In this document: positions 1 through 22,261 of the stretch, piece by piece | How the letters are laid out: each line of letters opens with the position of its first letter | Position numbering within the stretch: the first letter of the stretch is position 1 | From: Thermococcus paralvinellae | Lineage (GTDB): Archaea > Methanobacteriota_B > Thermococci > Thermococcales > Thermococcaceae | Direction: 5' to 3' | Assembly: GCF_000517445.1 (NCBI RefSeq) | Contig: NZ_CP006965.1 | Location: forward strand, 944,681 to 968,680 | DNA: 24,000 nucleotides | The notes under the pieces: generated by a model | Told to the model about the DNA's origin: nothing | Databases searched by the model: none | What the model saw: the letters and a program-made list of their open reading frames with translations, nothing else | Program-made: the position numbers and the translations under genes

Positions 1-122
1 AAACTACTCCCCAAAATTTATACAGATGTTGCAATGAATTTGCTTAAATCCTGACTATTTATCCATTTTTTATATGGAAACATTTAAATATTCCTATTCC
101 ATTAACGCCGTTAAGGGAAATC

Positions 123-770
123 ATGAAGAAGTTTCCGGCATATCTCGCTTCTTGGGATGATATTGAGAGATGGGCAAAAGAAGGGGCTTTGAAGGTTCTT
201 AACGAAGGCTGGAAACCAGATGTTGTAGTTGGGCTTGCAAGAGGTGGCTGGGTTCCAGCAAGGCTGTACTGTGATTATCTCGGCGTTAAGGACTTAGTAA
301 GCATCAAAGTTGAGCACTGGGGGGTAACTGCCACACCAGATGGAAAAGCAAAGCTCAAATACGGAACAGAGTATCCTTTTGAAGGAAAGAAAGTTCTTAT
401 TGTTGATGATATAGCTGATACAGGGGAGAGCCTAACCCTTGCTAAAAACTATGTTGAAAGTAAAAATCCAGCTGAAGTTAAAGCTGCAACGCTGTTGACA
501 ATAAAAACTTCAAAGTTCAGACCAGATTATTACGGAGAAGAGATAGACTGGGCATGGATTGTATTCCCATGGAACTTCGTTGAAGATATGATAAATCTGA
601 CAAACAACCTCTTTGAAGAAAAAGAAAAACTCACAACAGATGAAATCATTGCATTATTCAAGGAGTTACACGGTATTGATGTTCCAAAAGAAAAGCTTGA
701 GGAAGCTTTAAGCATGGCAGAGAAGAGAAAAATATTTAAGAAAGAGGGTGGATTTTGGCTCAAACCTTAA
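123..770 (+). CDS. purine (hypoxanthine/xanthine-guanine type) phosphoribosyltransferase family protein
   Basis: 215-aa ORF with the type I PRTase PRPP-binding loop (KVLIVDDIADTGESL) and a VVGLARGGWVPARL motif. An AT-rich TATA-like stretch (catttaaatatt) lies about 30 nt upstream. The roughly 60-aa C-terminal extension has no recognisable motif. Confidence 0.8.
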   Translation: MKKFPAYLASWDDIERWAKEGALKVLNEGWKPDVVVGLARGGWVPARLYCDYLGVKDLVSIKVEHWGVTATPDGKAKLKYGTEYPFEGKKVLIVDDIADTGESLTLAKNYVESKNPAEVKAATLLTIKTSKFRPDYYGEEIDWAWIVFPWNFVEDMINLTNNLFEEKEKLTTDEIIALFKELHGIDVPKEKLEEALSMAEKRKIFKKEGGFWLKP

Positions 771-782
771 GGTTGTGGTACT

Positions 783-1103
783 TTGGATAAAGAAAAGACC
801 ATAGAGGCAATCAAAAAGCACAGCAACTATTCAAGAGAAATTTACGAGATGCATGAGGAGAGTATAAATAACGCTATCGACAACTATGAACAGCTGAAAG
901 AAGATTACCTGAATGACCACTCAAGAGCTAGGATAGTTAGAATCGTTATAAATGAGGACAACGACTTGCCATTGGCAATTGAATTCCATAAAAAAGACGA
1001 CTCCTTCAAAGGCTTCAGCATTGCAATAGGAAAACCATACATAAAGAGTGAAAATAATGGGAAAATCGAAGAACAAGAAAATTACGAAGAAAGTAACGGC
1101 TGA
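783..1103 (+). CDS. hypothetical small acidic protein
   Basis: 106-aa ORF opening with TTG 13 nt after the PRTase stop. The composition looks coding-like but no motif is recognisable. Its 3' end overlaps the convergent gene at 1082-2881 by 22 nt. Confidence 0.4.
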   Translation: MDKEKTIEAIKKHSNYSREIYEMHEESINNAIDNYEQLKEDYLNDHSRARIVRIVINEDNDLPLAIEFHKKDDSFKGFSIAIGKPYIKSENNGKIEEQENYEESNG

Positions 1104-2881
1104 ACATAGAATCCATCTTCTATCTTTTCTCCATTATAAATTTCATAGCTGACAAGATAATAAGTCGGATTTCTGTATCTTCTTGTTGAATATCTATCTA
1201 CGCCAGCAATCCACACTATATAATTGTCTTTTTTGAGGGGATTTCTTATGGCGAGCAATAGGGATGTCTGGGGAGAAGTATAAGAAAGCTCTGTAAAGGA
1301 AACTTCTTTTATGTTATCTGGAGTTATGACAAATGTTCTAACACTTCCAAAATCTGGATTTTTCTCTAAAACCCAGATGCCGTTCTCAAACACAAACCTT
1401 AATGGGAAGTAGTCCTCAAACTGCTGGACAACTTTGTTGCTAACAGGCCCACCTATGAGGATTAAGTCTTTCCTCAAGTCTTCATCCGTCAGGTTTACAT
1501 CTGCCTTAACCTCGATTTTAATGTCTCCAGGCCACTGTGAGTAAAATGTTTCGAGATAGCTTTTCACGATCTCCGCAGTTTCTCTATCATATTCAGATCC
1601 TTTTTTATCTGGATTCTGAGTGCCATAGACAATTATTACTTCTCCTTCCTTTACAACATCATCTAAAGCTCTTAAAGGAGTAATAGGAACATTTTTCTCA
1701 TAAAGCTCCTTGGCCTTTTCTGGAGGAACTTTTTTAGCCAGATCATCGAGCATCTTGTAGACATACTCATCAAAGGTCTTGTTCTCTTCTAAGCTTAAAG
1801 CGGTGTATTTTTGATAGAGCTCTATCATATAATCTTGCCAAAATTCGCCCCATGCTTTCTGCATTTGGAGACTCCACTCGGCATAATCCTTATCTATATG
1901 ACTTAGGGCAAAGTATGCCCAGCCGTCCGCAAAGCTCTCATAAATCATCATTGTATCAAACCAGAAGTGAATATCATAGATTGCTAAATAGGGCATGTCA
2001 TCTTCTATTGTGTCTTCAAGATAGCGGAGAGGTCTAACTTTATATCCGTAATATTCCTCCAGTTTTTCATTCGTGATATCATGTCCTAGCTCGTGATAAA
2101 TGAAGTCCAAAACCCAAAGCTCATCAAATTTCCTGTTATTTACATAAACAGCGTTAAGAGGAAGACCAAAAATTGTATCTTTAGCTCTTTCCAAGCTCCA
2201 TAAAGTCCTTGGCGGTGCTCTCCTTACTAGCGGAGGTATTCCACCTGAGCCGTAAATCTTAGTTCCATTCTCTTCTCTGTAAAAGCTGTGTCCATGGATG
2301 CATACTAGATACGGCAGATGGAATTCAAATTTGGTATTTGTTAGGTTCATGTAGGGTTTCATGAATTCATCTGGAGGTAATAGCTGAATAGCAGATGCAT
2401 AAACTTCCAAATCTTGTTCATAATAACTTTCGTGGGCTTTGAAAAACTTCATAAAGTTCGTATCTTGGGCAAATTTTCTCAGAGCATTAACTATTTTGTC
2501 TAGCTCTGGGTCCTGCCACTCTGTATGAAGTCTTCTCATTTCTGGAGGACTCGAGAACTGAAGAACATATGCATCGAGGACAAAAAGCTTGTAGTCTCTC
2601 TGAGGGACTGTTTTTGCATCGCTGAAGTACTGCTTAAGTGCTTGAATTGCTTCATGATCTTTGTATTTGCCAAAATACGCATCAACATCTCTCAAATATT
2701 TCTCTCTGTGAATTACAAACTCATCTTGACCAAATGTAATATAATAAACAACGCTCAAAAGTTCCTCATTCGGGTTTATTCCAATGAGAACCTTATCCGT
2801 TTTATATTGATGGGCATAAGTGGGAGAAGCAAGAATTATGAAAACAAGAAGTATTAAAACTTTTCTCACATTACCACCCAT
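1082..2881 (-). CDS. secreted/membrane-anchored putative zinc metallopeptidase-like protein (HExxH)
   Basis: 599-aa ORF with an N-terminal hydrophobic signal or anchor (VLILLVFIILASPTYA) and a single HExxH motif (FIYHELGHD). The N-terminal half resembles DUF4932-type putative peptidases from memory; this is not verified. An alternative GTG start 12 nt downstream would have a GGTGGT ribosome-binding site. Confidence 0.75.
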   Translation of the reverse strand: MGGNVRKVLILLVFIILASPTYAHQYKTDKVLIGINPNEELLSVVYYITFGQDEFVIHREKYLRDVDAYFGKYKDHEAIQALKQYFSDAKTVPQRDYKLFVLDAYVLQFSSPPEMRRLHTEWQDPELDKIVNALRKFAQDTNFMKFFKAHESYYEQDLEVYASAIQLLPPDEFMKPYMNLTNTKFEFHLPYLVCIHGHSFYREENGTKIYGSGGIPPLVRRAPPRTLWSLERAKDTIFGLPLNAVYVNNRKFDELWVLDFIYHELGHDITNEKLEEYYGYKVRPLRYLEDTIEDDMPYLAIYDIHFWFDTMMIYESFADGWAYFALSHIDKDYAEWSLQMQKAWGEFWQDYMIELYQKYTALSLEENKTFDEYVYKMLDDLAKKVPPEKAKELYEKNVPITPLRALDDVVKEGEVIIVYGTQNPDKKGSEYDRETAEIVKSYLETFYSQWPGDIKIEVKADVNLTDEDLRKDLILIGGPVSNKVVQQFEDYFPLRFVFENGIWVLEKNPDFGSVRTFVITPDNIKEVSFTELSYTSPQTSLLLAIRNPLKKDNYIVWIAGVDRYSTRRYRNPTYYLVSYEIYNGEKIEDGFYVQPLLSS

Positions 2882-2962
2882 GGTAATTTGTGAAAATTGG
2901 CTTAAAAATTTTGCACAAAGTTTTAAAGTTAAATAACTTAATGATTTTAGGGTGACCTAAAA

Positions 2963-3943
2963 ATGAAAGTGAAAGCTGTTATACTCACGCTCCTTATCAT
3001 TTCATTCATAATTCCCGGTGTGTGTGCCGAAAAGCCTCTTGTGGTTGCGAGCATATCTCCCTTAGCAGAGATAGTGAGGGAATTGTTCGGCGATTCCGTA
3101 GAAGTGGTTTATATTATTCCACCGGGAGCTGATCCCCATCAATACCAGCTTACTCCCGAGCAGATTGAACTCATCAAAAAGGCTGATGTTGTTGTTACAG
3201 CCAACGGACATTTGCCAGCAGAACAAAAGATAAAGCAACTTAAGGAAGAAGGAACAATAAACGCAGATGTACTGTTCGCAGAGGATTATGCGAAATATGG
3301 CTTCAGATTTCTACCCGAGAGATGGTACAATAATAAGAACAACCCTCATGGAGTTTGGCTTGACCCTCATAACGCTCTGGCAATTGCAAAAGCAACGACG
3401 GAGGCATTATCAGAAAGATATCCACAGAACAGAGAGCTTTATGAAAAACAGTATGAAAAGTTTGAGACAAAAGTTCTGGCAATAATCGAAGCTTACAAAG
3501 CTTTGGCTGAAAATGCAACTGCTGTAATCGAAATGCCCTCCCAGCAATATGCTCTTGAGTGGCTTGGCGTAAAAGCTGTTGCCTCAATTAAGCCTGAAGA
3601 GGAAGTTCCAGCTAAGGACGTTGATGATATGATTAACATGGGGCAAACTGTTGATATTATTGCTTATTCTTCTCAAAGCCCTGAATCATTAAAAAATGCT
3701 GCCCTTGAGTTCTCTCAAAGAATCGGTAAACCTTTAGCCGATATAACCACAAGTTGGATCGACAAGCCTTACACTGAGATTTTAATTGCAAACTCCAAAG
3801 CTGTGATAGAAGCATTAAATCTAAGAACACATGCAGTTCCACAAACTGTAAAAGCGGAAAACATTAATGAGGTTTACATCATCTTAGCCCTGGTTGTTGG
3901 AATTTCACTAGGCATGGCGATTGGAGTTTTGATTAAAAAGTAA
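2963..3943 (+). CDS. ZnuA/TroA-family (cluster A-I) metal ABC transporter substrate-binding protein, C-terminally membrane anchored
   Basis: 326 aa with an N-terminal signal peptide (ILTLLIISFIIPGVCA). It carries PGADPHQYQLTP and WLDPHN motifs typical of Zn/Mn/Fe-binding substrate-binding proteins. The C-terminus is a TM helix plus basic tail (VYIILALVVGISLGMAIGVLIKK). A GGTGA ribosome-binding site lies about 8 nt upstream of the ATG. Confidence 0.8.
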   Translation: MKVKAVILTLLIISFIIPGVCAEKPLVVASISPLAEIVRELFGDSVEVVYIIPPGADPHQYQLTPEQIELIKKADVVVTANGHLPAEQKIKQLKEEGTINADVLFAEDYAKYGFRFLPERWYNNKNNPHGVWLDPHNALAIAKATTEALSERYPQNRELYEKQYEKFETKVLAIIEAYKALAENATAVIEMPSQQYALEWLGVKAVASIKPEEEVPAKDVDDMINMGQTVDIIAYSSQSPESLKNAALEFSQRIGKPLADITTSWIDKPYTEILIANSKAVIEALNLRTHAVPQTVKAENINEVYIILALVVGISLGMAIGVLIKK

Positions 3944-3944
3944 G

Positions 3945-3957
3945 AAAAAAAGAAAAT
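3945..3957 (-). terminator. oligo-T archaeal terminator candidate for the minus-strand ABC operon
   Basis: The plus strand reads aaaaaaagaaaat, so the minus strand reads ATTTTCTTTTTTT, beginning 5 nt 3' of the permease stop codon. Confidence 0.45.
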
Positions 3958-3961
3958 AAGC

Positions 3962-4867
3962 TCACTCTCTCTTGTAAGGTCTTCCATCCCACTTTGGCGG
4001 TCTTACTTTTCCAATGATTCCTGCAACGATAATTATTGTCACTATATATGGTAGTGTAGCAACAAACTGCCATGGAACAACTTGTGAAACTGCTGGATTT
4101 GTTCTTACCCACACCGAAAGATTATCAAAGAATCCAAAGAGAAATCCACCGATCAATGCCCTTACTGGGTTCCAGCCACTGAATACCATGTTCGCTAATG
4201 CAATGAAACCTCTACCTGAAGATATTTCCTTTGTGACAACTCCGAGCCAGTCAACGCTCAAATAAGCCCCTCCAAGTCCAGCTAGAGTTGCTCCATAGAC
4301 TGTTGCTAAAAATCTGTATCTCTCGACATTAACACCCAATGCATCTGCTGCCTCTGGGTTCTCACCAACTGCTCTTATTCTAAGTCCTAATGGAGTTCTA
4401 AAGAGTACCCAGTGTGTTAGGAACACAATTATGAAAGTTACAAGCACCATAGGACTTAATCCACCATAAGGCGTGTTTATTAGTGGTTGGATTCTAATGT
4501 TTGATGGAACTTGGTGTTGTCCGGCTGTGCCCCAAATTGCTGTAATTCCGAAGGCAACTACACCTAAAGCCAACAAATTCACACCGATACCAGGAATAAT
4601 GTGGTCTCCTTTAAGGTAGACTGTTATTGCACCATGAAGCATTCCAAGGAGCATCCCAATAAAAGCCCCTCCTAAAAGTCCAATCCATCCACTACCGCTC
4701 ATCTCTGCAAATATTGCGCCAAACAGTGCTGACATGAGTAGAATTCCTTCATATCCGATGTTCACAACTCCTGCTCTTTCACTTACCACTGCCCCCGTGC
4801 TTGTCAATACTATTGGAACCATTGCTGTCAATGATCCAAGAAGGATTGAGAGTATCATATCTATCAT
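3962..4867 (-). CDS. ABC transporter permease (BMP/CUT2-type, second permease)
   Basis: 301-aa polytopic hydrophobic protein. A 4-nt start/stop overlap with the upstream permease (4864-4867) indicates translational coupling within the operon. Confidence 0.85.
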   Translation of the reverse strand: MIDMILSILLGSLTAMVPIVLTSTGAVVSERAGVVNIGYEGILLMSALFGAIFAEMSGSGWIGLLGGAFIGMLLGMLHGAITVYLKGDHIIPGIGVNLLALGVVAFGITAIWGTAGQHQVPSNIRIQPLINTPYGGLSPMVLVTFIIVFLTHWVLFRTPLGLRIRAVGENPEAADALGVNVERYRFLATVYGATLAGLGGAYLSVDWLGVVTKEISSGRGFIALANMVFSGWNPVRALIGGFLFGFFDNLSVWVRTNPAVSQVVPWQFVATLPYIVTIIIVAGIIGKVRPPKWDGRPYKRE

Positions 4868-5904
4868 TTTCTCACCACCCTCTTAACCAAGTCCCACAGG
4901 CCTGGAATTGCCACAGCAACGACAATTATACCTTGCACTACCTTAACCATCTCTAATGGAACTCCGGCATCTATCTGCATGTATGTTGCTCCTGCTTTCA
5001 ATGCACCGAAGAAAATACCGCTGAAGATTATACCTATTGGGTGGTTTCTTCCTACTAAAGAAACACCAATTCCATCAAAACCGTAACCGTAGATGTTTGC
5101 CATTCCTTGGCTTATTGCATAGCTTGGTGGTCTGCCCATAACTTCAGTTGCTCCTGCCAAACCGCTCATCATGCCACCAAGGAGGAATGACCAGATGATA
5201 GCTTTTTTTGGATTGATTCCACCATATCTTGCAGCTCTCTCATTGTACCCGCTTGCTCTTAATTCAAATCCCAAAACTGTATGCCAGAGTATGTAGTATG
5301 TAATGATAGCAGCAGCTATTGAAATTATAAACGCAAGCGAAAATTCACTGCCTTTCATAAGCAGTGGCAACCTGGCACTTGCAGGAATTTCCAGTGTTTT
5401 GTTAGGATCATTGGGATTCGCTAGTGGGCCCAGAACAAGGTACAAGGCGGTATAAAACGCAATCCAGTTGAGCATGATTGTTGAGATAACCTCATGAACC
5501 CCTCTGTAAACCTTAAGCAAGGCAGCAGGAAGCGCCCAAAGAACTCCTGCTATAATTCCTCCGATGAGACCCCATAAGGGATTTGCAAACATGTTTGTAA
5601 AGACTATAGCAGCTATTGCACCAAAATAAACTGTACCCTCTGCACCAATGTTGAATATTCCAGTTCTTGCGCTTATTGCAAAAGTTAGTGCTGTTAAAAT
5701 TATTGGAGTTGCTGCACTCAGAGTCATAGACCATCCATAAGTTGAACCCACAGCCCCTTTTACCAATGCAATATAAGCCTTAATTGGACTATATCCCGAA
5801 AACTTCAGAACTATTGCTCCGATTAATACACCTATTGCAACGGCTATAAGGCTCTCCATGATGGGTCGTATGAAGTTGGAAATTACAATTTTATCAGCTT
5901 TCAT
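4864..5904 (-). CDS. ABC transporter permease (BMP/CUT2-type, first permease)
   Basis: 346-aa polytopic hydrophobic protein that overlaps the ATPase gene end (5894-5904). Confidence 0.85.
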   Translation of the reverse strand: MKADKIVISNFIRPIMESLIAVAIGVLIGAIVLKFSGYSPIKAYIALVKGAVGSTYGWSMTLSAATPIILTALTFAISARTGIFNIGAEGTVYFGAIAAIVFTNMFANPLWGLIGGIIAGVLWALPAALLKVYRGVHEVISTIMLNWIAFYTALYLVLGPLANPNDPNKTLEIPASARLPLLMKGSEFSLAFIISIAAAIITYYILWHTVLGFELRASGYNERAARYGGINPKKAIIWSFLLGGMMSGLAGATEVMGRPPSYAISQGMANIYGYGFDGIGVSLVGRNHPIGIIFSGIFFGALKAGATYMQIDAGVPLEMVKVVQGIIVVAVAIPGLWDLVKRVVRK

Positions 5905-7423
5905 TTTTGATACCTCCCATCATAAGTCCGATTTGCTCTTCTGTTACCTCTTCGGGCTTTACAATGCCTACAAACTGTCCCTCATACATTATTGCCATTC
6001 TATCGCTGAGTTGGAGAACTTCATCTAAATCAGCGGATACCAATAAAACTGCTTTGTTCTCGTTTCTGAGCTTGACGAGATAGTTTCTGATGTATTCCGT
6101 TGATGCAACGTCGACACCTCTTGTAGGCTGAGATGCGACTATTAACAGAGGTTCTTTGCTAACTTCTCTTGCAACAATAAGCTTTTGTTGGTTACCACCA
6201 CTCAAGCTTTTAACGGGAGCATCCACTCCTGGTGCAACTACTTCAAACTTTTCTATAAGCTCTTGAGCGTGTTTTTTAACGTTACTCCATTTGATGGAGT
6301 TCAATATTCCTGTAAACTTTTTATTCCAGTGAAGACCCAAGATAGAGTTTTCAGCAACGGTCATGTCAAGAATCAACCCCATGTTAGTTCTGTCTTCTGG
6401 TATGTGGGCTACTCCCAAATCATAGAGTTCTTTTGGAGGCCTGCCTGTGATATCCTTACCATTGAGGATTACCCTACCCTTTTCAATCTTTCTCAGGCCA
6501 GTGATAGCTTCAATCAATTCAGTTTGCCCATTTCCTTCAACACCTGCAATTCCAAATATCTCACCGGCTCTTACTTCAAATGTTAAGCCCTTAACGGCAT
6601 CTTCTCCTCTATCTCCCTTTACCCACAAGTCTTCCACTCTCAATATAGGTTCCCCAGGTTCCTTTGGAGGCTTTTGAATTCTCAAAACAACATCTCTACC
6701 AACCATCATCCTTGCCAAGAGCTGAGGTGTAGCTTCGCTTGTGTTTACTGTTCCTATAAGTTCACCTTTCCTGAGAACTGTAACCCTATCAGTTATCTCC
6801 ATTACCTCTCTAAGCTTGTGGCTGATGAAAATTATAGTTTTCCCTTGTTCTTTGAGCTTTCTCAAAACATCAAACAGCTCTTTAACTTCAATAGGAGTAA
6901 GCACAGCAGTTGGCTCATCCAAAATGAGGACATCAACATCTCTATACAAAACCTTCAAAATTTCAATTCTCTGCTGAACCCCAACTGGAAGATTCTCTAC
7001 TGGTACATCCAGAGGAACTTGAAAATTCAGCTCATCCATAAGCTTTTGCAGTTTGGCTCTTGCCTTATTTACATCAATGTTAGAGAACAACCCATGTCCT
7101 TCCATCCCCAAAATTATGTTGTGAAGGGCATCAAAAACCTCAACGAGAGTAAAATGCTGGTGAACCATACCAATTCCATTAGCAAGAGCATCAGCAGGGC
7201 TTTTAAATCGAACCTCCTTTCCATTCACATAGATTTTACCCTCAGTTGGATGAAGCATACCAGAGAGGATTTTCATCAAAGTGGTTTTACCAGCACCATT
7301 CTCACCTAAAAGGCCATGAATCTCCCCCTTTCTAACAGAGAAGTCAACACCTTTCAGAGCCTTAGTTCCATCAGGATAAACCTTAACAATATTCTCCATT
7401 TTTATGATGGGGACTTCTTCCAT
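5894..7423 (-). CDS. ABC transporter ATP-binding protein with two fused ABC domains (CUT2/BMP-type)
   Basis: The first domain has Walker A GENGAGKTT, signature-like LPVGVQQRIEI and Walker B VLILDEPT. The second domain has a degenerate Walker A GVEGNGQTE and signature LSGGNQQK. I place the start at the ATG at 7423 (MEEVPIIK...) because a GGAGGTGG ribosome-binding site sits 4 nt upstream. The track start at 7444 lies within or upstream of this RBS, making it less likely. Confidence 0.9.
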   Translation of the reverse strand: MEEVPIIKMENIVKVYPDGTKALKGVDFSVRKGEIHGLLGENGAGKTTLMKILSGMLHPTEGKIYVNGKEVRFKSPADALANGIGMVHQHFTLVEVFDALHNIILGMEGHGLFSNIDVNKARAKLQKLMDELNFQVPLDVPVENLPVGVQQRIEILKVLYRDVDVLILDEPTAVLTPIEVKELFDVLRKLKEQGKTIIFISHKLREVMEITDRVTVLRKGELIGTVNTSEATPQLLARMMVGRDVVLRIQKPPKEPGEPILRVEDLWVKGDRGEDAVKGLTFEVRAGEIFGIAGVEGNGQTELIEAITGLRKIEKGRVILNGKDITGRPPKELYDLGVAHIPEDRTNMGLILDMTVAENSILGLHWNKKFTGILNSIKWSNVKKHAQELIEKFEVVAPGVDAPVKSLSGGNQQKLIVAREVSKEPLLIVASQPTRGVDVASTEYIRNYLVKLRNENKAVLLVSADLDEVLQLSDRMAIMYEGQFVGIVKPEEVTEEQIGLMMGGIKNES

Positions 7424-7468
7424 TATTCCACCTCCAAAATCCAAAATTAAGAAGAAAGAAAAGAGAAA

Positions 7469-8794
7469 TCAGCTGCTGCTTCCCCACTGTTTGGCTAGTT
7501 CTTCCATCTCTTGCCAGGTCTTTGCATTTCTTAGTGCTTCAATCTGTTCCTTGTTCGTTGCCTTTGGAACTACTATTTCACCACTGAGTATCTTCTGCTT
7601 GAGTTCGTCAACTGCCTGCCAGATCCAGTCTGGGATTTGCTTTCTTGTTTGTTCAAGCTTTGCAAAGAGCTCATCCTCACTCTTAAAGCCAAGCTCTTCG
7701 AGTTTCTTCTTCTTAACATCTTCTGGGAGTGAACCAAACATGGCCTTAACATCATCAATTGTGCTGACTCCAACACCGCCATCAGCAAGTCCGAGCTCTA
7801 CGATTCCTCCTTTGAATGTTCCCTTGACTGCTGCTTCAACAGCCTTGTAGACACCAACGTCGACTCTCTTCATCATACTTGCAATGATCACACCTGGCTT
7901 AATCCAGTCCTGTGCTGAGTCAACACCGATGGCAAATGGTGGACCAAATTCTTTTCCTTGGCTCTTTAGGTATTCCTCAACTGCATCGAAAACACCCAAA
8001 CCAACTGCACCAGCAATCTGGTAAATCACCCATGCACCTTGTCCAAGTTGAGCCTGGGCAGCGGTCTTACCCTTAGCTGGGTCAGTGAATGAACCTGTGT
8101 AGGTGTAGAGAACTTGTATGTTAACGTCCTTTCCAGTCTTCTTCTTATAGTAATCCTCAGCCCACTTTACACCAAATCTGTAACCACCTTCGAACTTGTA
8201 GAGAACTGGGATTTCAATACCAAGGACTGCACCAACCTTATCTTTGCCGTCGTTTGCAGCAATAAGTCCAGCCAGTGCACCAACCAAGGCTGAACCTTCG
8301 TTTTCCTTGAAGAGGATACTCATGACGTTTGGCTTGTCTGGAATATATCCGTCAATGATTGCGAACTTCTGGTTGGGGAACTCATCTGCAACTTGCTTGA
8401 CAGCGTCAGTCATCATGAAACCAACTGCAATGATTATATCATACTTTCCGCTTTGAGCAAGAACTCTAAGGTTTGGTAAGTAGTCACTCTCACTCTTACT
8501 TTGTACTTCCTTTAATTCAAGTCCAAAGTCCTTTGCTGCTCTTGAAGCACCTAAGTAAGCCATATCGTTAAAGCTCAGATCACCTCTTCCACCAACGTCA
8601 TAAACGATTGCTATTGCACCTTTGACTTTGGGTTTCTCTGTTGATGTCTGTGTTTGAGCGGGAGTTGTTGTTTGTTGAGCAGGAGTTGTGGTCTTCTCAG
8701 GTGTTGTGGTTTTTTCTCCTCCGATACAGCCACTAGCAACTACGCTAAATGCCAACACACCAATTAAAAACAAAGCCAATATTGACTTTCTCAT
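7469..8794 (-). CDS. BMP-family (PnrA/Med-like) ABC transporter substrate-binding lipoprotein, probable nucleoside/purine binding
   Basis: 441 aa with a signal peptide ending in a lipobox-like ASGC (Cys23). A Thr/Pro-rich linker follows (TTTPEKTTTPAQQTTTPAQTQTSTEKPK). The BMP-like core contains AIVYDVGGRGDLSFND and IIAVGF. It is the first gene of the operon, and a GGGGTG ribosome-binding site lies upstream. Confidence 0.85.
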   Translation of the reverse strand: MRKSILALFLIGVLAFSVVASGCIGGEKTTTPEKTTTPAQQTTTPAQTQTSTEKPKVKGAIAIVYDVGGRGDLSFNDMAYLGASRAAKDFGLELKEVQSKSESDYLPNLRVLAQSGKYDIIIAVGFMMTDAVKQVADEFPNQKFAIIDGYIPDKPNVMSILFKENEGSALVGALAGLIAANDGKDKVGAVLGIEIPVLYKFEGGYRFGVKWAEDYYKKKTGKDVNIQVLYTYTGSFTDPAKGKTAAQAQLGQGAWVIYQIAGAVGLGVFDAVEEYLKSQGKEFGPPFAIGVDSAQDWIKPGVIIASMMKRVDVGVYKAVEAAVKGTFKGGIVELGLADGGVGVSTIDDVKAMFGSLPEDVKKKKLEELGFKSEDELFAKLEQTRKQIPDWIWQAVDELKQKILSGEIVVPKATNKEQIEALRNAKTWQEMEELAKQWGSSS

Positions 8795-8840
8795 GTGGTA
8801 ACACCCCTGGAAGTTTTCTCATTCATGAAAAGATACACCC

Positions 8841-8855
8841 TTAAATATATATTTT
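8841..8855. promoter_or_regulatory. TATA-box candidate in divergent intergenic region (BMP operon promoter, possibly bidirectional)
   Basis: The near-palindromic TTAAATATATATTTT lies about 50 nt upstream of the minus-strand ATG at 8794. This spacing fits an archaeal TATA box plus a short leader carrying a ribosome-binding site. Confidence 0.45.
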
Positions 8856-8926
8856 GTGGTAGGTTTCCTCGGGTTTTTTGGAGATTTTTCGAAAAATTAT
8901 TAAGGCTCTTTCACATTATCACCGGC

Positions 8927-9382
8927 ATGTTAAAGGAAATAATACAGCTAAGTAAAGGTGTAATATTAATTACTGGAAATGCAAAAAAGATTACTAGAAT
9001 CCTACTCAACACTTGGCTTTCGAATGGAATGACGTTTTTAGTGGAGTATTTACCTTTTGATGTAAGATACCCAGAGAATGTTTTTATTGGGGATTTAAAT
9101 AAGGGTGTGGAATTTGATGGCTACCTAATTTACAACCTCCTTTCCCGATCAAAAAACGAAAGAGCAAGAATTTATGAATGGATAAAAGAGCACCACGATA
9201 AATTAATTTTAATCTACGAAACCAAATATATGAAGGATTCTGCGCTCCGTTATGGAATTAAAGAATTAATTAATTATTTAATTGCATATAAAAGGGAAAC
9301 ACTCGGGTTTGAAAGAATTGATGTCTATAAGTTCAAAGAGGGAAAGGTAGTTGAGAAGAAAACTTTTGTGAGAAGAGTATGA
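8927..9382 (+). CDS. hypothetical protein abutting the CRISPR trailer end (possibly a degenerate RecA/KaiC-superfamily domain)
   Basis: The track ORF starts at 8795, but its first 44 codons cover the promoter region. The ATG at 8927 (MLKEIIQLSKGVILITGNAKK...) is preceded by cgaaaaattattaagg, a BRE/TATA-like sequence about 25-35 nt upstream, which suggests a leaderless mRNA. GVILITGNAKKITRILL resembles a decayed P-loop. The family call is speculative. Confidence 0.45.
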   Translation: MLKEIIQLSKGVILITGNAKKITRILLNTWLSNGMTFLVEYLPFDVRYPENVFIGDLNKGVEFDGYLIYNLLSRSKNERARIYEWIKEHHDKLILIYETKYMKDSALRYGIKELINYLIAYKRETLGFERIDVYKFKEGKVVEKKTFVRRV

Positions 9383-9387
9383 GCTAG

Positions 9388-11573
9388 ATTTCAATTCTTC
9401 TAAAGTCTTATTGAAACTGGGTCACAATCAACTTCGAAGGCGACGCTGACAAGGATTTCAATTCTTCTAAAGTCTTATTGAAACGCACCGCTCCAAGTCG
9501 GCAATGCATTGATGCTGTCAAGATTTCAATTCTTCTAAAGTCTTATTGAAACCTGATCACCGAGGCTAAGCTTTGATGGGTTGAGCAATATTTCAATTCT
9601 TCTAAAGTCTTATTGAAACCGTAAGTATCGTTGAACTTAACCCAAACCAAGTAATTATTTCAATTCTTCTAAAGTCTTATTGAAACGGTCTTGCAAAGCC
9701 AAGATACAGCTTCTATATACTCATATTTCAATTCTTCTAAAGTCTTATTGAAACCTCCGCGGGGGGACTTAGATGTGAGGCTTAAGAAGTTTGCATTTCA
9801 ATTCTTCTAAAGTCTTATTGAAACATCTTCCAGGACAAAGTGCATGGTCCAGGAAGATATATTTCAATTCTTCTAAAGTCTTATTGAAACCATCGGCATT
9901 AGGATCCCAAAAGAGGTTGCCGAACTGAATTTCAATTCTTCTAAAGTCTTATTGAAACTCACTTTGAGGGTGTAGTTGCCCATCTTTGGCAGAGGAGTAT
10001 TTCAATTCTTCTAAAGTCTTATTGAAACTGAAAAGTGCATGATAAAGCCTTAATCCACCCTTCTTCGATTTCAATTCTTCTAAAGTCTTATTGAAACAGG
10101 AACTCGGAATAACAAAACAAAAACTCAAGAAGCTATTTCAATTCTTCTAAAGTCTTATTGAAACATAGCGAGCCGAGACAGGGAATAAAAGCTGATGTGG
10201 TATTTCAATTCTTCTAAAGTCTTATTGAAACCGTAAGTATCGTTGAACTTAACCCAAACCAAGTAATTATTTCAATTCTTCTAAAGTCTTATTGAAACTT
10301 GAGGAGTTAAGAGAGAAGGGCTACGAGGATGCACTAATTTCAATTCTTCTAAAGTCTTATTGAAACGGGGAGAACAGAAAAGCCTAAGCATTGACGACGA
10401 AGTTATTTCAATTCTTCTAAAGTCTTATTGAAACCTAACTCTAAGATCGATTAAACTGTATTGCTGAGCGAATTTCAATTCTTCTAAAGTCTTATTGAAA
10501 CCCCCAGCATGGGGATAGGGGTTAGGCGTCATAGGAATATTTCAATTCTTCTAAAGTCTTATTGAAACCAATAACTTCCCTCTCAAGAGGTTCAGGATAG
10601 AAGTAATTTCAATTCTTCTAAAGTCTTATTGAAACAAATGTTTTGCGATGAAGCTACAGCAATCTTTATTCAATTTCAATTCTTCTAAAGTCTTATTGAA
10701 ACTTCGCTCTACTTAGAAGTTTTGCACCTTCCTCTATAAAATTTCAATTCTTCTAAAGTCTTATTGAAACTCTTACCGACATTTCATCAGGCTTGAACGA
10801 GAACAGAATTTCAATTCTTCTAAAGTCTTATTGAAACAAGTAGAAAACAAAAAGGTTTTAGAGATTGAGCTTTTATTTCAATTCTTCTAAAGTCTTATTG
10901 AAACCCGTGCATTGTTCCCGCAATCCCCTTGCCAGGAACAATTACATTTCAATTCTTCTAAAGTCTTATTGAAACCTCCGCCAACTCTTAGTATGCCTAA
11001 ACCTCCCGAATCTCTATTTCAATTCTTCTAAAGTCTTATTGAAACTTGAAGACCGATTTGAGGCTGATTTTAGATGGAAAGGATTTCAATTCTTCTAAAG
11101 TCTTATTGAAACCGCCAAGTGCCCAAAGTACTACACAAAGAAAGAAGACATTTCAATTCTTCTAAAGTCTTATTGAAACTCAATGCAAACCATCTGCCAT
11201 CGTGCTTCACATCGTCTATTTCAATTCTTCTAAAGTCTTATTGAAACTCTCACCGACAACTATCATCGCCGTCATGATTTTTGTATTTCAATTCTTCTAA
11301 AGTCTTATTGAAACTGAACCGCTATGGCAACCTTTGCCCCTGCTGCTACGTATTTCAATTCTTCTAAAGTCTTATTGAAACCAATTACATGCTTAGAGAA
11401 GCTATTCTCAAGGTCGAGGTATTTCAATTCTTCTAAAGTCTTATTGAAACACATCATTCACGATGAAGCTACAGCAATCTTTATTCAATTTCAATTATTC
11501 TAAAGTCTTATTGAAACTTCGCTCTACTTAGAAGTTTTGCACCTTCCTCTATAAAATTTCAATTCTTCTAAAG
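9388..11573 (-). CRISPR. CRISPR array, main block: 32 intact 30-nt repeats and 32 spacers (36-41 nt), crRNA sense on minus strand
   Basis: The plus strand reads ATTTCAATTCTTCTAAAGTCTTATTGAAAC. Its reverse complement, GTTTCAATAAGACTTTAGAAGAATTGAAAT, aligns along its length with the P. furiosus repeat GTTCCAATAAGACTAAAATAGAATTGAAAG, which sets the orientation. Repeat 32 carries a C>A variant at 11497. The last 18 nt (11556-11573) are the 5' part of a hybrid repeat. Confidence 0.97.
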
Positions 11574-12689
11574 AAGAATTGAAATCCTTTCCATCTAAAA
11601 TCAGCCTCAAATCGGTCTTCAAGTTTCAATAAGACTTTAGAAGAATTGAAACCCTTTCCATCTAAAATCAGCCTCAAATCGGTCTTCAAGTTTCAATAAG
11701 ACTTTAGAAGAATTGAAACCCTTTCCATCTAAAATCAGCCTCAAATCGGTCTTCAAGTTTCAATAAGACTTTAGAAGAATTGAAACCCTTTCCATCTAAA
11801 ATCAGCCTCAAATCGGTCTTCAAGTTTCAATAAGACTTTAGAAGAATTGAAACCCTTTCCATCTAAAATCAGCCTCAAATCGGTCTTCAAGTTTCAATAA
11901 GACTTTAGAAGAATTGAAACCCTTTCCATCTAAAATCAGCCTCAAATCGGTCTTCAAGTTTCAATAAGACTTTAGAAGAATTGAAATAATTGACCTTTTA
12001 GAGGACTATGGCATAAGTAAGGTTAGTTTCAATAAGACTTTAGAAGAATTGAAATAATTGACCTTTTAGAGGACTATGGCATAAGTAAGGTTAGTTTCAA
12101 TAAGACTTTAGAAGAATTGAAATAATTGACCTTTTAGAGGACTATGGCATAAGTAAGGTTAGTTTCAATAAGACTTTAGAAGAATTGAAATAATTGACCT
12201 TTTAGAGGACTATGGCATAAGTAAGGTTAGTTTCAATAAGACTTTAGAAGAATTGAAATAATTGACCTTTTAGAGGACTATGGCATAAGTAAGGTTAGTT
12301 TCAATAAGACTTTAGAAGAATTGAAATAATTGACCTTTTAGAGGACTATGGCATAAGTAAGGTTAGTTTCAATAAGACTTTAGAAGAATTGAAATAATTG
12401 ACCTTTTAGAGGACTATGGCATAAGTAAGGTTAGTTTCAATAAGACTTTAGAAGAATTGAAATAATTGACCTTTTAGAGGACTATGGCATAAGTAAGGTT
12501 AGTTTCAATAAGACTTTAGAAGAATTGAAATAATTGACCTTTTAGAGGACTATGGCATAAGTAAGGTTAGTTTCAATAAGACTTTAGAAGAATTGAAATA
12601 ATTGACCTTTTAGAGGACTATGGCATAAGTAAGGTTAGTTTCAATAAGACTTTAGAAGAATTGAAATAATTGACCTTTTAGAGGACTAT
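11574..12689 (+). CRISPR. CRISPR block of inverted polarity: 16 intact repeats in plus-strand crRNA sense, carrying only two amplified spacers
   Basis: The repeat GTTTCAATAAGACTTTAGAAGAATTGAAA(T/C) reads on the plus strand. There are six identical 37-nt spacers with a 67-nt period (11586-11957). Ten identical 38-nt spacers follow with a 68-nt period (11988-12637), then a 22-nt truncated 11th copy (12668-12689). Confidence 0.9.
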
Positions 12690-12755
12690 CTCTTTGTTTG
12701 ACGAAAACCACACATTTCTAACCAAATTTCAATTCTTCTAAAGTCTTATTGAAAC
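12690..12755 (-). CRISPR. leader-proximal CRISPR unit (36-nt spacer-like sequence plus one intact minus-sense repeat)
   Basis: ctctttgtttgacgaaaaccacacatttctaaccaa (12690-12725) is followed by an intact ATTTCAATTCTTCTAAAGTCTTATTGAAAC (12726-12755) that directly abuts the AT-rich leader. Confidence 0.85.
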
Positions 12756-13281
12756 AGGGTGCAATTTTGTCCTATTTCTCTAATAAAACTATAAAAACAC
12801 TTGAATTATAAAAGCTTTTCTCCAAAGGGTCAAAAACAGAGCTAAAGCAAACCTCTGATTGATACCCTACTAGCAATCAATTAAGCTAATTCTCAGCCAT
12901 TTTCCTATAATTCAACGAACGTACAGCGATGTTCAGACCATCTCCAACAACTTTTTAGGTGTTAAAACTAGAAAAACTAAATAATAAGGGATCTATATTA
13001 AAAATGGTCAAATTTCCAAAAGGAATACTTACTAAAGAAACCTCGAGAGTCCCCCCTTCCAAATGAATACATTTAAAATGTTATGATTTCAGTAAAAATG
13101 TGCAACACAATGTAATTTAATAACAACTGATTACTAAAATCTTCCAACACATTCTCGAGCCTCCATTTTGGAATCAAACCATATTAGAACCCAAAAATTG
13201 CAAAAACTGGAACATCAGTGAGTATCGAAAAATCTTCAAAAAGATTAAATGGAAGTATGGTCAAAGTCACTATGATGAGCC
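12756..13281 (-). promoter_or_regulatory. CRISPR leader (also contains the divergent cas2 promoter)
   Basis: This is a 526-bp AT-rich stretch with no credible ORF, lying between the first minus-sense repeat and cas2. Minus-strand TATA candidates are TTTTATAA (plus-strand 12806-12813) and TTTTTATAGTTTTA (plus-strand 12784-12797), 30-60 nt upstream of the first repeat. Exact promoter and boundaries are not determined. Confidence 0.6.
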
Positions 13282-14573
<1,292 letters not shown>

Positions 14574-14726: not shown

Positions 14727-14963
14727 ATGAGAGCAGTGGGGCTAATTTTGTTACTATTGCTATTGAGTTCTTTTGCTAAAGCTACTGAAACATCTTACGA
14801 CCCTTTAAATTTCAATGAATCCCAAATGGAACCAGTAAATCCAGATAAAAAGTTTGGGGATAGAGGGCTTAGTCTATGGGTTATAGGTGGAGTTGTTATC
14901 ATGCTCTTGATTGGGGCATATTTTGGGTACAGATATTTGAAACATTTAGGTGAGTGCCAATGA
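14727..14963 (+). CDS. small secreted/bitopic membrane protein
   Basis: 78 aa with a signal peptide (LILLLLLLSSFAKA), a C-terminal TM helix (LWVIGGVVIMLLIGAYFGY) and a GGATGTGA ribosome-binding site upstream. It overlaps the next ORF, so the two are probably co-translated as an operon. Confidence 0.6.
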   Translation: MRAVGLILLLLLLSSFAKATETSYDPLNFNESQMEPVNPDKKFGDRGLSLWVIGGVVIMLLIGAYFGYRYLKHLGECQ

Positions 14964-15814
14964 AATACGCAAAATACACCTTATTCTTATTGATTTTCTT
15001 ACATTTTTGTTGTGTGTATGCAATGGAGGGAAACGTGTTATGGATTGAGAAGGACTATGACTCATGGATGTATTTAGGTGCGAATGAATCCTTAAGAAAC
15101 CTGCCTATAAACGATGGTGAGAGTTTTGAATTAGAATATGAGGTTTATGTGGAATATTATGAATCAAGAACAGATTGGGCACCCTTAGCCTTAATGCAAG
15201 TTCATTTGAATACAAATACTGTAAATTCAAATCCCGACAAATACTACGATATAAGATTATGGGACGGAGGACGCCTTACCCTTGTGGGTCCTGATAGATA
15301 TGTAACATATTTGAAAACGGATAGTTTTTCAAAATATGATGACCCAAATGTATGGATTGAAAAAGTGCATAGAATAAAAATTGAAGTGGACAAGCACAAC
15401 GGTACGAATTTTGAAGTTAAATATTATGTTGATGGAGATTTAGTCGGGAAGTGGGACACTTCATTCATTCTTTCAGCTCCTAAAGATTCATATTTAAGTT
15501 GGAAATGGAAGAACTTTACTCTCACTGAAGTCTGCTATGGAATTGGATTTGTTTTTGGAAGTACCGATCCAAACAACAGATTTAAGATGGCAATTGATAA
15601 TTTAAGAATTAAATTGCCAAATGGAACTGTATTATATGAAGATTTCGAAGACAATAATTGGAATAGGATCTTTGGTAGGATAAGTTATAAGAGAGGATAC
15701 TCAGATTACGGACTTGGTTCTGCTCCAAAACAATCAGTGAAAGCTTCGATTCCATGGGATGTCATGATAATAGCTTATTCACTCATAACCTTCATTGTGC
15801 TTAAAAGGAGATAA
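14960..15814 (+). CDS. membrane-anchored secreted protein with concanavalin-A/LamG-like jelly-roll signature
   Basis: About 284 aa with an N-terminal signal (TLFLLIFLHFCCVYA). It has a LamG-like pattern (VHRIKIEVDK...EVKYYVDGDLVGKWD...MAIDNLRI). The C-terminus is a TM helix plus basic tail (VMIIAYSLITFIVLKRR). The ATG at 14960 has a GGTGA ribosome-binding site 8 nt upstream. The track start at 14954 is also possible. Confidence 0.7.
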   Translation: MKYAKYTLFLLIFLHFCCVYAMEGNVLWIEKDYDSWMYLGANESLRNLPINDGESFELEYEVYVEYYESRTDWAPLALMQVHLNTNTVNSNPDKYYDIRLWDGGRLTLVGPDRYVTYLKTDSFSKYDDPNVWIEKVHRIKIEVDKHNGTNFEVKYYVDGDLVGKWDTSFILSAPKDSYLSWKWKNFTLTEVCYGIGFVFGSTDPNNRFKMAIDNLRIKLPNGTVLYEDFEDNNWNRIFGRISYKRGYSDYGLGSAPKQSVKASIPWDVMIIAYSLITFIVLKRR

Positions 15815-15975: not shown

Positions 15976-16909
<934 letters not shown>

Positions 16910-16982: not shown

Positions 16983-17234
16983 GAGACTACTCAGGGTCAG
17001 TGAAGTATTCCAGCTTCTCCAGCAGGTTCCTTATCTTGTTGGTGTACCTCTCCAGAAGACCTCCCTTGAAAGTCTCATCTATCATGCTCCGCTCCTCGGA
17101 GTACCCAAGTGGTTGGCTCTCATACTCCTTGAGAACTGCTATGGTCTTTTCAAGGCTCTCCCTATCGTAAACTGCTAAGGTTCCCCTATCGATTCCAGTG
17201 AAGATGACAACATTGGCTGACCCTGAGTAGTCTC
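16983..17234. repeat. 252-bp element bounded by a perfect 18-bp inverted repeat, abutting the 23S rRNA 3' end
   Basis: GAGACTACTCAGGGTCAG (16983-17000) and CTGACCCTGAGTAGTCTC (17217-17234) are exact reverse complements, separated by 216 bp of low-GC sequence. Confidence 0.9.
16987..17216 (-). pseudogene. 5'-truncated coding remnant (no start codon) inside the inverted-repeat element
   Basis: The minus-strand frame reads ...ANVVIFTGIDRGTLAVYDRESLEKTIAVLKEYESQPLGYSEERSMIDETFKGGLLERYTNKIRNLLEKLEYFTDPE* with protein-like composition. Upstream, the frame continues only into GC-rich 23S sequence. The only in-frame ATG outside the rRNA leaves 32 codons. Confidence 0.5.
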
Positions 17235-17237
17235 TTT

Positions 17238-20255
<3,018 letters not shown>

Positions 20256-20375
20256 TTACTTGAGGGGCTGGGCATTTTTTGGGCCAATCCGCCTATGCAC
20301 GGCCCTCATCGTGACCCCTATTCGGGGCCTAGGACCCTTCCACCCCGAGCTTTGCTCGGGATGTGCACCTCTTCG

Positions 20376-20452
20376 TGGTGGACCGGCCGGGATTTGAACC
20401 CGGGGCCTCCGGCTTGCAAAGCCGGCGCTCTCCCAGGCTGAGCTACCGGCCC
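20376..20452 (-). tRNA. tRNA-Ala (anticodon TGC) with genomically encoded CCA, in the 16S-23S spacer
   Basis: The reverse complement is GGGCCGGTAGCTCAGCCTGGGAGAGCGCCGGCTTTGCAAGCCGGAGGCCCCGGGTTCAAATCCCGGCCGGTCCACCA. It folds as a cloverleaf with anticodon loop TTTGCAA and T-loop GGTTCAAATCC. Confidence 0.95.
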
Positions 20453-20459
20453 ACTCTAT

Positions 20460-20494
20460 GGCAGGCCCAACACCCCTTAAACCCCCCGGACGGG
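20460..20494 (-). other. 3' strand of the 16S rRNA processing stem (pairs with 22051-22085)
   Basis: Plus-strand ggcaggcccaacaccccttaaaccccccggacggg (20460-20494) is complementary to cccgtccggggtttggtcggggtgttgggcctgcc (22051-22085). This gives 17 bp plus 11 bp of perfect pairing around a central bulged section, the architecture expected for an archaeal bulge-helix-bulge processing site. Confidence 0.75.
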
Positions 20495-20505
20495 TTTCCG
20501 GCGAT

Positions 20506-22000
<1,495 letters not shown>

Positions 22001-22050
22001 TGAAATGGGAGTACGGCCGGTGGGACTCCCCTCAAAGGGGAGTACCAATT

Positions 22051-22085
22051 CCCGTCCGGGGTTTGGTCGGGGTGTTGGGCCTGCC
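22051..22085 (-). other. 5' strand of the 16S rRNA processing stem (pairs with 20460-20494)
   Basis: See the partner feature at 20460-20494. Complementarity was checked base by base. Confidence 0.75.
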
Positions 22086-22261
22086 TTACCCCCGAGGGGT
22101 CCCCCATTTCGGGGTTTTCCTCGGGAGTGCATTGGTTGTGCCCATGGCCGGAGGGCGGGGTTCATGTTGGGTGCTTTGCACCCAGTCCCCCCGACGCCGC
22201 CGTCTTGTGCCTGGGCTTGCGCCCCCTTATTCGGGGGCTCCACCCAATACTTAGCAACATC

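Follow-up and report, generated by a model that had tools for sequence, protein, structure and literature searches.

Here, we describe an array of CRISPR (short palindromic repeats that are clustered and regularly interspaced) in the archaeon Thermococcus paralvinellae, strain ES1 (DSM 27261), whose complete genome is credited to Jung et al. 2014, as cited in PMC4762990, and whose original genome reads belong to BioProject PRJNA230233, as listed in PMC4640148. The stretch analysed, hereafter the window, comprises 24,000 nucleotides (nt) of contig NZ_CP006965.1 (positions 944,681 to 968,680 of the forward strand), and all coordinates below are positions within it. The array has 50 repeat copies, including one hybrid, at a period of 66–71 nt, and is accompanied by a leader and adaptation genes. 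One part of it, a single unit away from the leader, is inverted relative to the rest and built from tandem copies of two spacers, A and B. The features on which the description depends are as follows.

9388–11555, minus strand: main array, 32 repeats (30 nt) and 32 spacers (36–41 nt) with internal direct duplications, from repeat scan and Rfam
11046–11082, minus strand: resident spacer, TTGAAGACCGATTTGAGGCTGATTTTAGATGGAAAGG on the plus strand, whose exact reverse complement is spacer A
11556–11585, no strand assigned: junction 1, a 30-nt in-register hybrid of minus-sense repeat (positions 1–18) and plus-sense repeat (positions 19–30)
11586–11957, plus strand: A block, six copies of spacer A (37 nt, CCTTTCCATCTAAAATCAGCCTCAAATCGGTCTTCAA) with five variant repeats between the copies
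11958–12689, plus strand: B block, 11 canonical plus-sense repeats with ten copies of spacer B (AATTGACCTTTTAGAGGACTATGGCATAAGTAAGGTTA, 38 nt) and a 22-nt truncated copy (12668–12689)
12689–12690, no strand assigned: junction 2, a blunt join of position 22 of the eleventh B copy to the 36-nt leader-proximal spacer
12690–12755, minus strand: leader-proximal unit, the 36-nt spacer s1 (12690–12725) and the first repeat (12726–12755), from scan and Rfam
12756–13281, minus strand: leader, 526 nt, AT-rich and non-coding
13282–13539, plus strand: cas2 (Pfam PF09827, E=4e-24)
13536–14504, minus strand: cas1 (Pfam PF01867, E=8e-82), a type I-B Cas1b, AHF80394/WP_042680873 by exact protein look-up
15976–16551, minus strand: cas4 (Pfam PF01930, E=6e-58)

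The array repeat, located by a fuzzy scan with mismatches allowed, is 30 nt long and reads ATTTCAATTCTTCTAAAGTCTTATTGAAAC on the plus strand. With the leader on the right, the array reads along the minus strand, and the reverse complement, GTTTCAATAAGACTTTAGAAGAATTGAAAT, is thus the repeat in the sense of the CRISPR RNA (crRNA). Repeats of the ATTTCAATTCTTCTAAAGTCTTATTGAAAC type number 32 on the plus strand (9388–11517) and include one altered by C>A at 11497, whereas the reverse-complement form, either GTTTCAATAAGACTTTAGAAGAATTGAAAT or a variant ending in C, occurs 16 times (11623–12667). In the scan, polarity along the window is therefore minus from 9388 to 11573, plus from 11574 to 12689, and minus again from 12690 to 12755. 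Matches to the Rfam family CRISPR-DR6, which are independent of the scan, return the same succession of minus, plus and minus, although each repeat copy scores 36.7–37.9 bits (E about 1e-5) and none reaches the gathering score of 39. Both switches, 11573/11574 and 12689/12690, lie exactly where the initial annotation had placed them, and its count of 32 older spacers was right, these comprising 30 distinct sequences. With crRNA sense on the minus strand, the block from 11574 to 12689 is antisense to leader-driven transcription.

In other respects, the locus conforms to the definition of a CRISPR: regularly spaced direct repeats of 29–31 nt alternate with spacers of like size, and a leader and adaptation genes adjoin the array. 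Uniform polarity and near-unique spacers, both normal for arrays, are violated here. The repeat is quasi-palindromic: 18 of its 30 positions are the same whichever way it is read, among them the 5′ TTTCAAT and, in the tag region, the 3′ ATTGAAA. Its 3′ end, ATTGAAAT or the C-ending form, corresponds to the 8-nt tag region. The leader-proximal spacer s1 has no other copy within the window. The repeat at the trailer end is perfect rather than degenerate.

Within the inverted block, Tandem Repeats Finder reports an A part (11572–11986, period 67, 6.2 copies, 99% matches) and a B part (11957–12689, period 68, 10.8 copies, 100% matches), and chance is no issue for perfect tandem copies of 67 and 68 nt. 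This composition matches the earlier description of 16 intact repeats carrying two spacers in 6 and about 10 copies, and the repeat scan likewise bears out the placement of the block one unit from the leader. The variant repeats (...GAAAC) start at 11623, 11690, 11757, 11824 and 11891, so that a final C replaces T in 5 of the block's 16 repeats. The T>C change is confined to repeats between A copies, the repeats flanking the A block being canonical, and the variant scores 37.9 bits against CRISPR-DR6, as opposed to 36.7. The characteristic strings are GAAGAATTGAAACCCTTTCCATC for the variant repeat plus A, GGTCTTCAAGTTTCAATAAGACTTTAGAAGAATTGAAATAATTGACC for A, repeat and B, and GTAAGGTTAGTTTCAATAAGACTTTAGAAGAATTGAAATAATTGACC for B, repeat and B. 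Six inverted-repeat pairs (I1–I6), each of 95–98 nt, link the A units with 11015–11112, and the identity of A with the reverse complement of the resident spacer means that the block material is not foreign to the array. Slippage amplification, one of the routes suggested in the initial annotation, accords with copies that are direct, tandem, identical and bounded by repeats (99–100% matches at periods 67 and 68); it does not account for a block oriented opposite to the rest of the array.

The two ends of the block differ in kind. At junction 1 (string CTCTATAAAATTTCAATTCTTCTAAAGAAGAATTGAAATCCTTTCCATC), the parental repeats share only AG at the crossover, a microhomology of 2 nt, and the product, ATTTCAATTCTTCT-AA-AGAAGAATTGAAAT, is a 14-bp perfect palindrome with an AA centre, for which a single-stranded DNA hairpin of -10.1 kcal/mol is calculated, compared with -2.8 and -3.0 for normal repeats. 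MicroRNA-like Rfam matches at 11488–11653, far under threshold, reflect this hairpin. At junction 2 (string CTTTTAGAGGACTATCTCTTTGTTTGACG), the join shows neither a repeat nor microhomology and falls at the edge of the first spacer that is distal to the leader, a point at which a repeat would be expected to start. The two block ends are thus no reciprocal pair of hybrids, as junction 1 has a hybrid repeat and junction 2 has none.

All 31-mers of 11518–12760 were compared with a model of canonical repeat-spacer-repeat units in both orientations. Outside the model fall 89 distinct 31-mers, of which 28 belong to junction 1, 31 to the variant repeat (occurring five times) and 30 to junction 2. A misread path through an assembly graph would be composed entirely of k-mers that also occur in normal contexts, and these 89 do not. 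Because they cannot be derived by re-ordering canonical units, reads or finishing products must have contained the corresponding sequences.

Other, more ordinary duplications are found in the same array. A 37-nt spacer, CGTAAGTATCGTTGAACTTAACCCAAACCAAGTAATT, occurs at 9620–9656 and again at 10232–10268 in like orientation, nine units apart. A two-unit direct duplication relates 10636–10740 to 11451–11555, the second copy lying directly left of junction 1 and containing the C>A change at 11497 in its inner repeat. Its second spacer (38 nt) is identical in both copies, whereas the first spacers share their last 27 nt and differ in their first 10 (AAATGTTTTG versus ACATCATTCA); this pair might stem from recombination of a spacer or from two separate uptakes from variant invaders.

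Independent data are available for the surroundings of the array. Logan short-read contigs (k=31, Illumina-based; runs SRR5815174, SRR5815180, SRR5815181 and SRR6983794) match the window at 100% identity across 9415 nt of the left flank and 4305 nt of the right (13.7 kb), which indicates that the deposited sequence is base-accurate outside the array. The runs probably correspond to the published T. paralvinellae RNA sequencing (RNA-seq) sets, which are 2x150 Illumina data deposited under GSE112986 (PMC6495749). One contig, L003, extends unbroken from the cas genes via the leader into the first repeat. Contigs break exactly where a flank plus partial repeat becomes a 30-mer common to another array unit (L003 ends at 12729 and L001 starts at 9415; CCT plus repeat, for example, is shared with the spacer at 10098), and such break points are indirect evidence that the run data contain those internal units. 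Small open reading frames (ORFs) across junction 1 or across two A copies and the variant repeat between them had no exact match, and control ORFs of the normal array were likewise unmatched.

Relatives of the locus proved scarce. Among 185,579 species genomes, a set without the ES1 genome itself, none matched the exact repeat, and a search of JGI metagenomes with the 28-nt repeat core returned only three solitary ...GAAAG repeats and none of the spacers of the array. A protein encoded just outside the window led only to a Guaymas metagenome-assembled genome of another species (Thermococcus sp. GB_MAG1_027, contig L005, 11288–21338). This genome, the nearest one available, is collinear with window positions 1–9375 at 84% nucleotide identity and has no CRISPR repeat where the ES1 array starts; the locus stops about 730 nt past the synteny break. 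The array and its adaptation module appear to be an insertion or a loss relative to this genome. A metagenomic contig, L013 (Ga0180300_10000493, 5051–10722), carries cas1 and cas4 homologues (76–81% nucleotide identity), two cas2 homologues (70–72%) and a two-repeat mini-array whose repeat ends in ...GAAAG, the repeat nearer to cas2 being degenerate; alignment of the ES1 leader with this cas locus revealed no conservation. In the literature, no paper with this repeat or the run accessions was found, and a 2026 survey of Thermococcales spacers contains no discussion of this array.

Much of the locus is familiar. It is a member of a well-known system, the Thermococcales array with type 6 repeats and an adjacent adaptation module, and arrays of T. 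kodakarensis and P. furiosus carry the repeat class represented by CRISPR-DR6 (PMC3737340), with 8-nt tags of AUUGAAAB in the former and AUUGAAAG in the latter (PMC3737340, PMC4215187). Shared features include a 30-nt repeat, here with near-threshold matches to CRISPR-DR6, spacers of 36–41 nt, an AT-rich leader of several hundred nt, adjacent cas1, cas2 and cas4, and a repeat 3′ end that suits the AUUGAAAB tag. Unlike such arrays, this one switches polarity twice, holds 16 units with two spacers, and contains one palindromic hybrid repeat.

The block also resembles, in part, the duplications ascribed to misalignment (SpacerPlacer; 'Pruning and tending immune memories'), in that perfect direct head-to-tail copies recur at the repeat-spacer period and ordinary one- and two-unit duplications exist elsewhere in the array. 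As the initial annotation had remarked, known duplications are usually simple (PMC11472070, PMC8047081): they touch about 3% of spacers, and rearrangements are rarer still (PMC11472070). In contrast to those catalogued, the two neighbouring units here reach 6 and about 10.6 copies and lie in a block inverted as a whole; the main texts of PMC11472070 and PMC8047081, which cover deletions, simple duplications and rare rearrangements, contain neither 'inversion' nor 'inverted'.

The explanation that we favour, at about an even chance, is that a real rearrangement near the leader end of the array gave rise to the block and that the sequenced ES1 DNA carried it. The order of events and the mechanism given here are reconstructed from the anatomy of the block. 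Counted from the leader, the order before inversion would have been leader, R, s1, R, then a-R′ six times, b-R at least 11 times, t and the older spacers, R being a repeat. In this order, a would be a second copy of the spacer at 11046–11082, gained by duplication or re-acquisition and in keeping with the further duplications that lie beside it, and b an ordinary unique spacer acquired after t. First, replication misalignment between neighbouring repeats or spacer copies may have amplified the two units in tandem, with a T>C change arising in the first internal repeat and then being copied into every internal repeat; a mutation carried along the amplification would leave only the repeats between A copies variant. 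Second, breaks on either side of the amplified segment may have been rejoined with the segment flipped. The break between s1 and the first a would have cost 18 nt (repeat positions 1–18) and the other 28 nt, namely 16 nt from the end of the final b copy and 12 nt of the repeat after it, and rejoining would have yielded the hybrid palindromic repeat at 11556–11585 with 2 nt of homology and the blunt mid-spacer join at 12689/12690 with none.

Several points speak for this scheme. A single two-break inversion accounts for both junctions, and the match of A to the reverse complement of a resident spacer indicates that the material came from the array itself. The restriction of the variant to repeats between A copies fits the pattern of stepwise unequal exchange after one mutation. 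The other direct duplications (9620/10232 and 10636–10740/11451–11555) show that this array does rearrange, and duplication of repeat-spacer units is accepted to proceed through replication misalignment (PMC8047081, PMC11472070). Terminal-base variants are included in the natural tag variation of T. kodakarensis, AUUGAAAB (PMC3737340), and the terminal-base repeat variant of this array is within that range.

Other points weigh against it. At least four rare events are needed within about three array units, and 6 and 10 copies far exceed the usual single extra unit (PMC11472070). The reciprocal hybrid repeat expected at junction 2 is missing, and the in-register hybrid at junction 1 would be a coincidence under end joining. 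Spacer B has no anchor: there is no second copy anywhere else in the window, and neither a comparison of the array with plasmid and phage collections nor one of the cores of A and B with IMG/VR gave a protospacer match. The confinement of the variant fits an unrolled loop of real sequence equally well. Finally, every Logan contig stops inside the first repeat on each side, leaving the array interior uncovered.

The initial annotation left both a real rearrangement and an assembly error open, which we judge to have been right. It is possible, though we rather doubt it, that assembly or finishing of the 2014 genome created all or part of the block, the true array being collinear or having far fewer copies. 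Possible causes are an array gap closed with a chimeric product of a polymerase chain reaction (PCR) or a clone, loop contigs unrolled by depth, and chimeric reads in the consensus. The perfect tandem stretches of 415 and 733 nt are longer than short reads, so copy numbers would then derive from depth, paired ends or PCR; two neighbouring spacers, each separately amplified, resemble two graph loops; the blunt mid-spacer join at junction 2 looks like a chimeric join; and no independent confirmation of the block was obtained. Some assemblers limit loop unrolling to about 10 passes. The tandem units also exceed short reads as in known assembly loops and chimeras, and short-read contigs break at every repeat, yet the junction sequence is not derivable from canonical units. 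Mis-traversal of a graph cannot invent the 89 novel 31-mers of the two junctions and the T>C repeats, for which a k-mer or consensus assembler requires several supporting reads; moreover, the variant repeat is restricted to internal A copies, both flanks are base-perfect against independent data, and missed adapters, mate-pair linkers or PCR jumping between direct repeats would, by argument, predict no in-register inverted hybrid. A pure looped-graph-path artefact is therefore unlikely, although the copy numbers are not thereby validated. These underivable 31-mers weaken the specific artefact first suggested, in which a chimeric or looped assembly path runs through a different array sharing the repeat.

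Other variants in which the rearrangement is real are, even taken together, rather unlikely. In one of them, itself unlikely, a break one unit away from the leader would have taken up, in inverted orientation, a fragment of another array that shares the repeat; its donor could be elsewhere in the ES1 chromosome, another chromosome copy of this polyploid archaeon, or another strain. Such an import would suit the adjacency of a and b, which is unlike the neighbours of the resident copy of spacer a, the lack of a B copy in the rest of the window, and junctions with 2-nt or zero homology, as in fragment capture by end joining. However, the donor would have to hold the same spacer as 11046–11082, which is unusual for separate arrays; the JGI metagenomes and the species genomes searched, ES1 not among them, offered only the solitary ...GAAAG repeats in place of the exact repeat; and inter-array recombination is described as a rare event (PMC11472070, citing Kupczok et al., PMC4524480).

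In the other variant, which the initial annotation had put forward and which we regard as very improbable, aberrant integration or disintegration by Cas1-Cas2(-Cas4) at the leader-proximal repeat would have produced breaks that were repaired as an inversion or amplification. Junction 2 at the leader-distal edge of the first spacer, the distance of one unit from the leader, and the intact cas1, cas2 and cas4 next to the array are in keeping with such a trigger, but no sequence feature is specific to integrase chemistry and junction 1 lies mid-repeat rather than at a repeat border. Widely staggered Cas1-Cas2 integration was rejected, as it should give a direct duplication and not an inverted one.

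Further candidates are not supported or were rejected. Recombination between inverted repeats, which the initial annotation had listed, is not supported in its reciprocal form, since junction 2 has no reciprocal hybrid repeat. Tandem inversion duplications, or fold-backs at short quasi-palindromes, leave an inverted segment between direct-sense flanks and are known from bacterial amplification. The block resembles them in that junction 1 lies at a short palindrome with minimal microhomology and junction 2 is asymmetric, but the model fails for B: a direct-sense counterpart in the flank exists for A alone, so that the central segment is more than a reversed copy of its flanks. Fold-back priming via the 7-nt terminal stems is contradicted by the crossover of junction 1 at positions 18/19, outside the stems, and two divergent arrays fused by leader loss by the units beside junction 1, which duplicate older spacers and are not new acquisitions.

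On the far side of the array, the leader contains TATA-like motifs on the minus strand at about 12812–12806 and at 12797–12790, which are putative promoter elements. The window contains neither effector genes nor cas6. Between cas1 and cas4 lies an opposite-strand ORF of 286 amino acids (14954–15814, plus strand) with a hydrophobic N- and C-terminus and no Pfam family, and cas4 is followed by a 116-amino-acid ORF (16559–16909, minus strand), also without a family. At the trailer side, an unannotated ORF of up to 195 amino acids (8795–9382, plus strand) stops 5 nt before the trailer-end repeat; it is called as 151 amino acids in the Logan gene calls and has no Pfam match, and the protein collection lacks the exact 195-amino-acid form. 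Exact protein look-up identified two housekeeping proteins encoded in the window as AHF80399/WP_042680879 and AHF80387/WP_042680867. A single rRNA operon lies about 4.5 kb from the CRISPR leader, within 17226–22238 (minus strand), and the GC-rich ORFs listed across it are spurious. Its features and the guide RNA beside it are as follows.

17226–20250, minus strand: 23S rRNA
20376–20452, minus strand: tRNA-Ala(TGC)
20506–22000, minus strand: 16S rRNA
22137–22238, minus strand: H/ACA guide RNA Pab19, just upstream of the rRNA operon

Should the favoured in-situ rearrangement be correct, its consequences at the RNA level can be sketched from the orientation of the units. A leader-driven transcript would hold about 1.1 kb of antisense units, including six stretches of about 100 nt complementary to 11015–11112. 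The initial annotation had proposed that the block cuts the 32 older spacers off from processing. This is unsupported, since the Cas6 of Thermococcales cuts inside every repeat, with an 8-nt tag left behind (PMC3737340), and because the enzyme acts repeat by repeat, the repeats downstream of the block should still be processable if transcription continues. A bolder proposal, to which we attach little probability, is that the block is real, arose in vivo at the integration-active end of the array, and contains inverted units that may still be processed, as the repeat is quasi-palindromic. If antisense repeats are processed, species of about 45 nt with the complement of B and a AUUGAAAC tag are expected. 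In that event, crRNAs would come from both orientations of a spacer, with an approximately 10-fold dose of one guide; alternatively, the six complementary stretches of about 100 nt would fold the pre-crRNA into double-stranded RNA. Either way, a polyploid hyperthermophile would then offer a natural experiment on three matters: the polarity of arrays, the specificity of Cas6 and the repair of breaks at CRISPR leaders.

As it stands, the block is a structural oddity of one locus in a reference genome, and it may be real or an artefact. If it is an artefact, the reference genome to which RNA-seq data are mapped contains an error, and spacer-based studies of viruses and hosts would be misled by counting 16 units for two spacers. 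If it is real, it would be a rare documented array with an inverted, heavily amplified segment beside the leader, would imply that CRISPR repeats can mediate rearrangements beyond the loss or gain of units, and would provide a testable case for transcription and Cas6 processing across antisense repeats.

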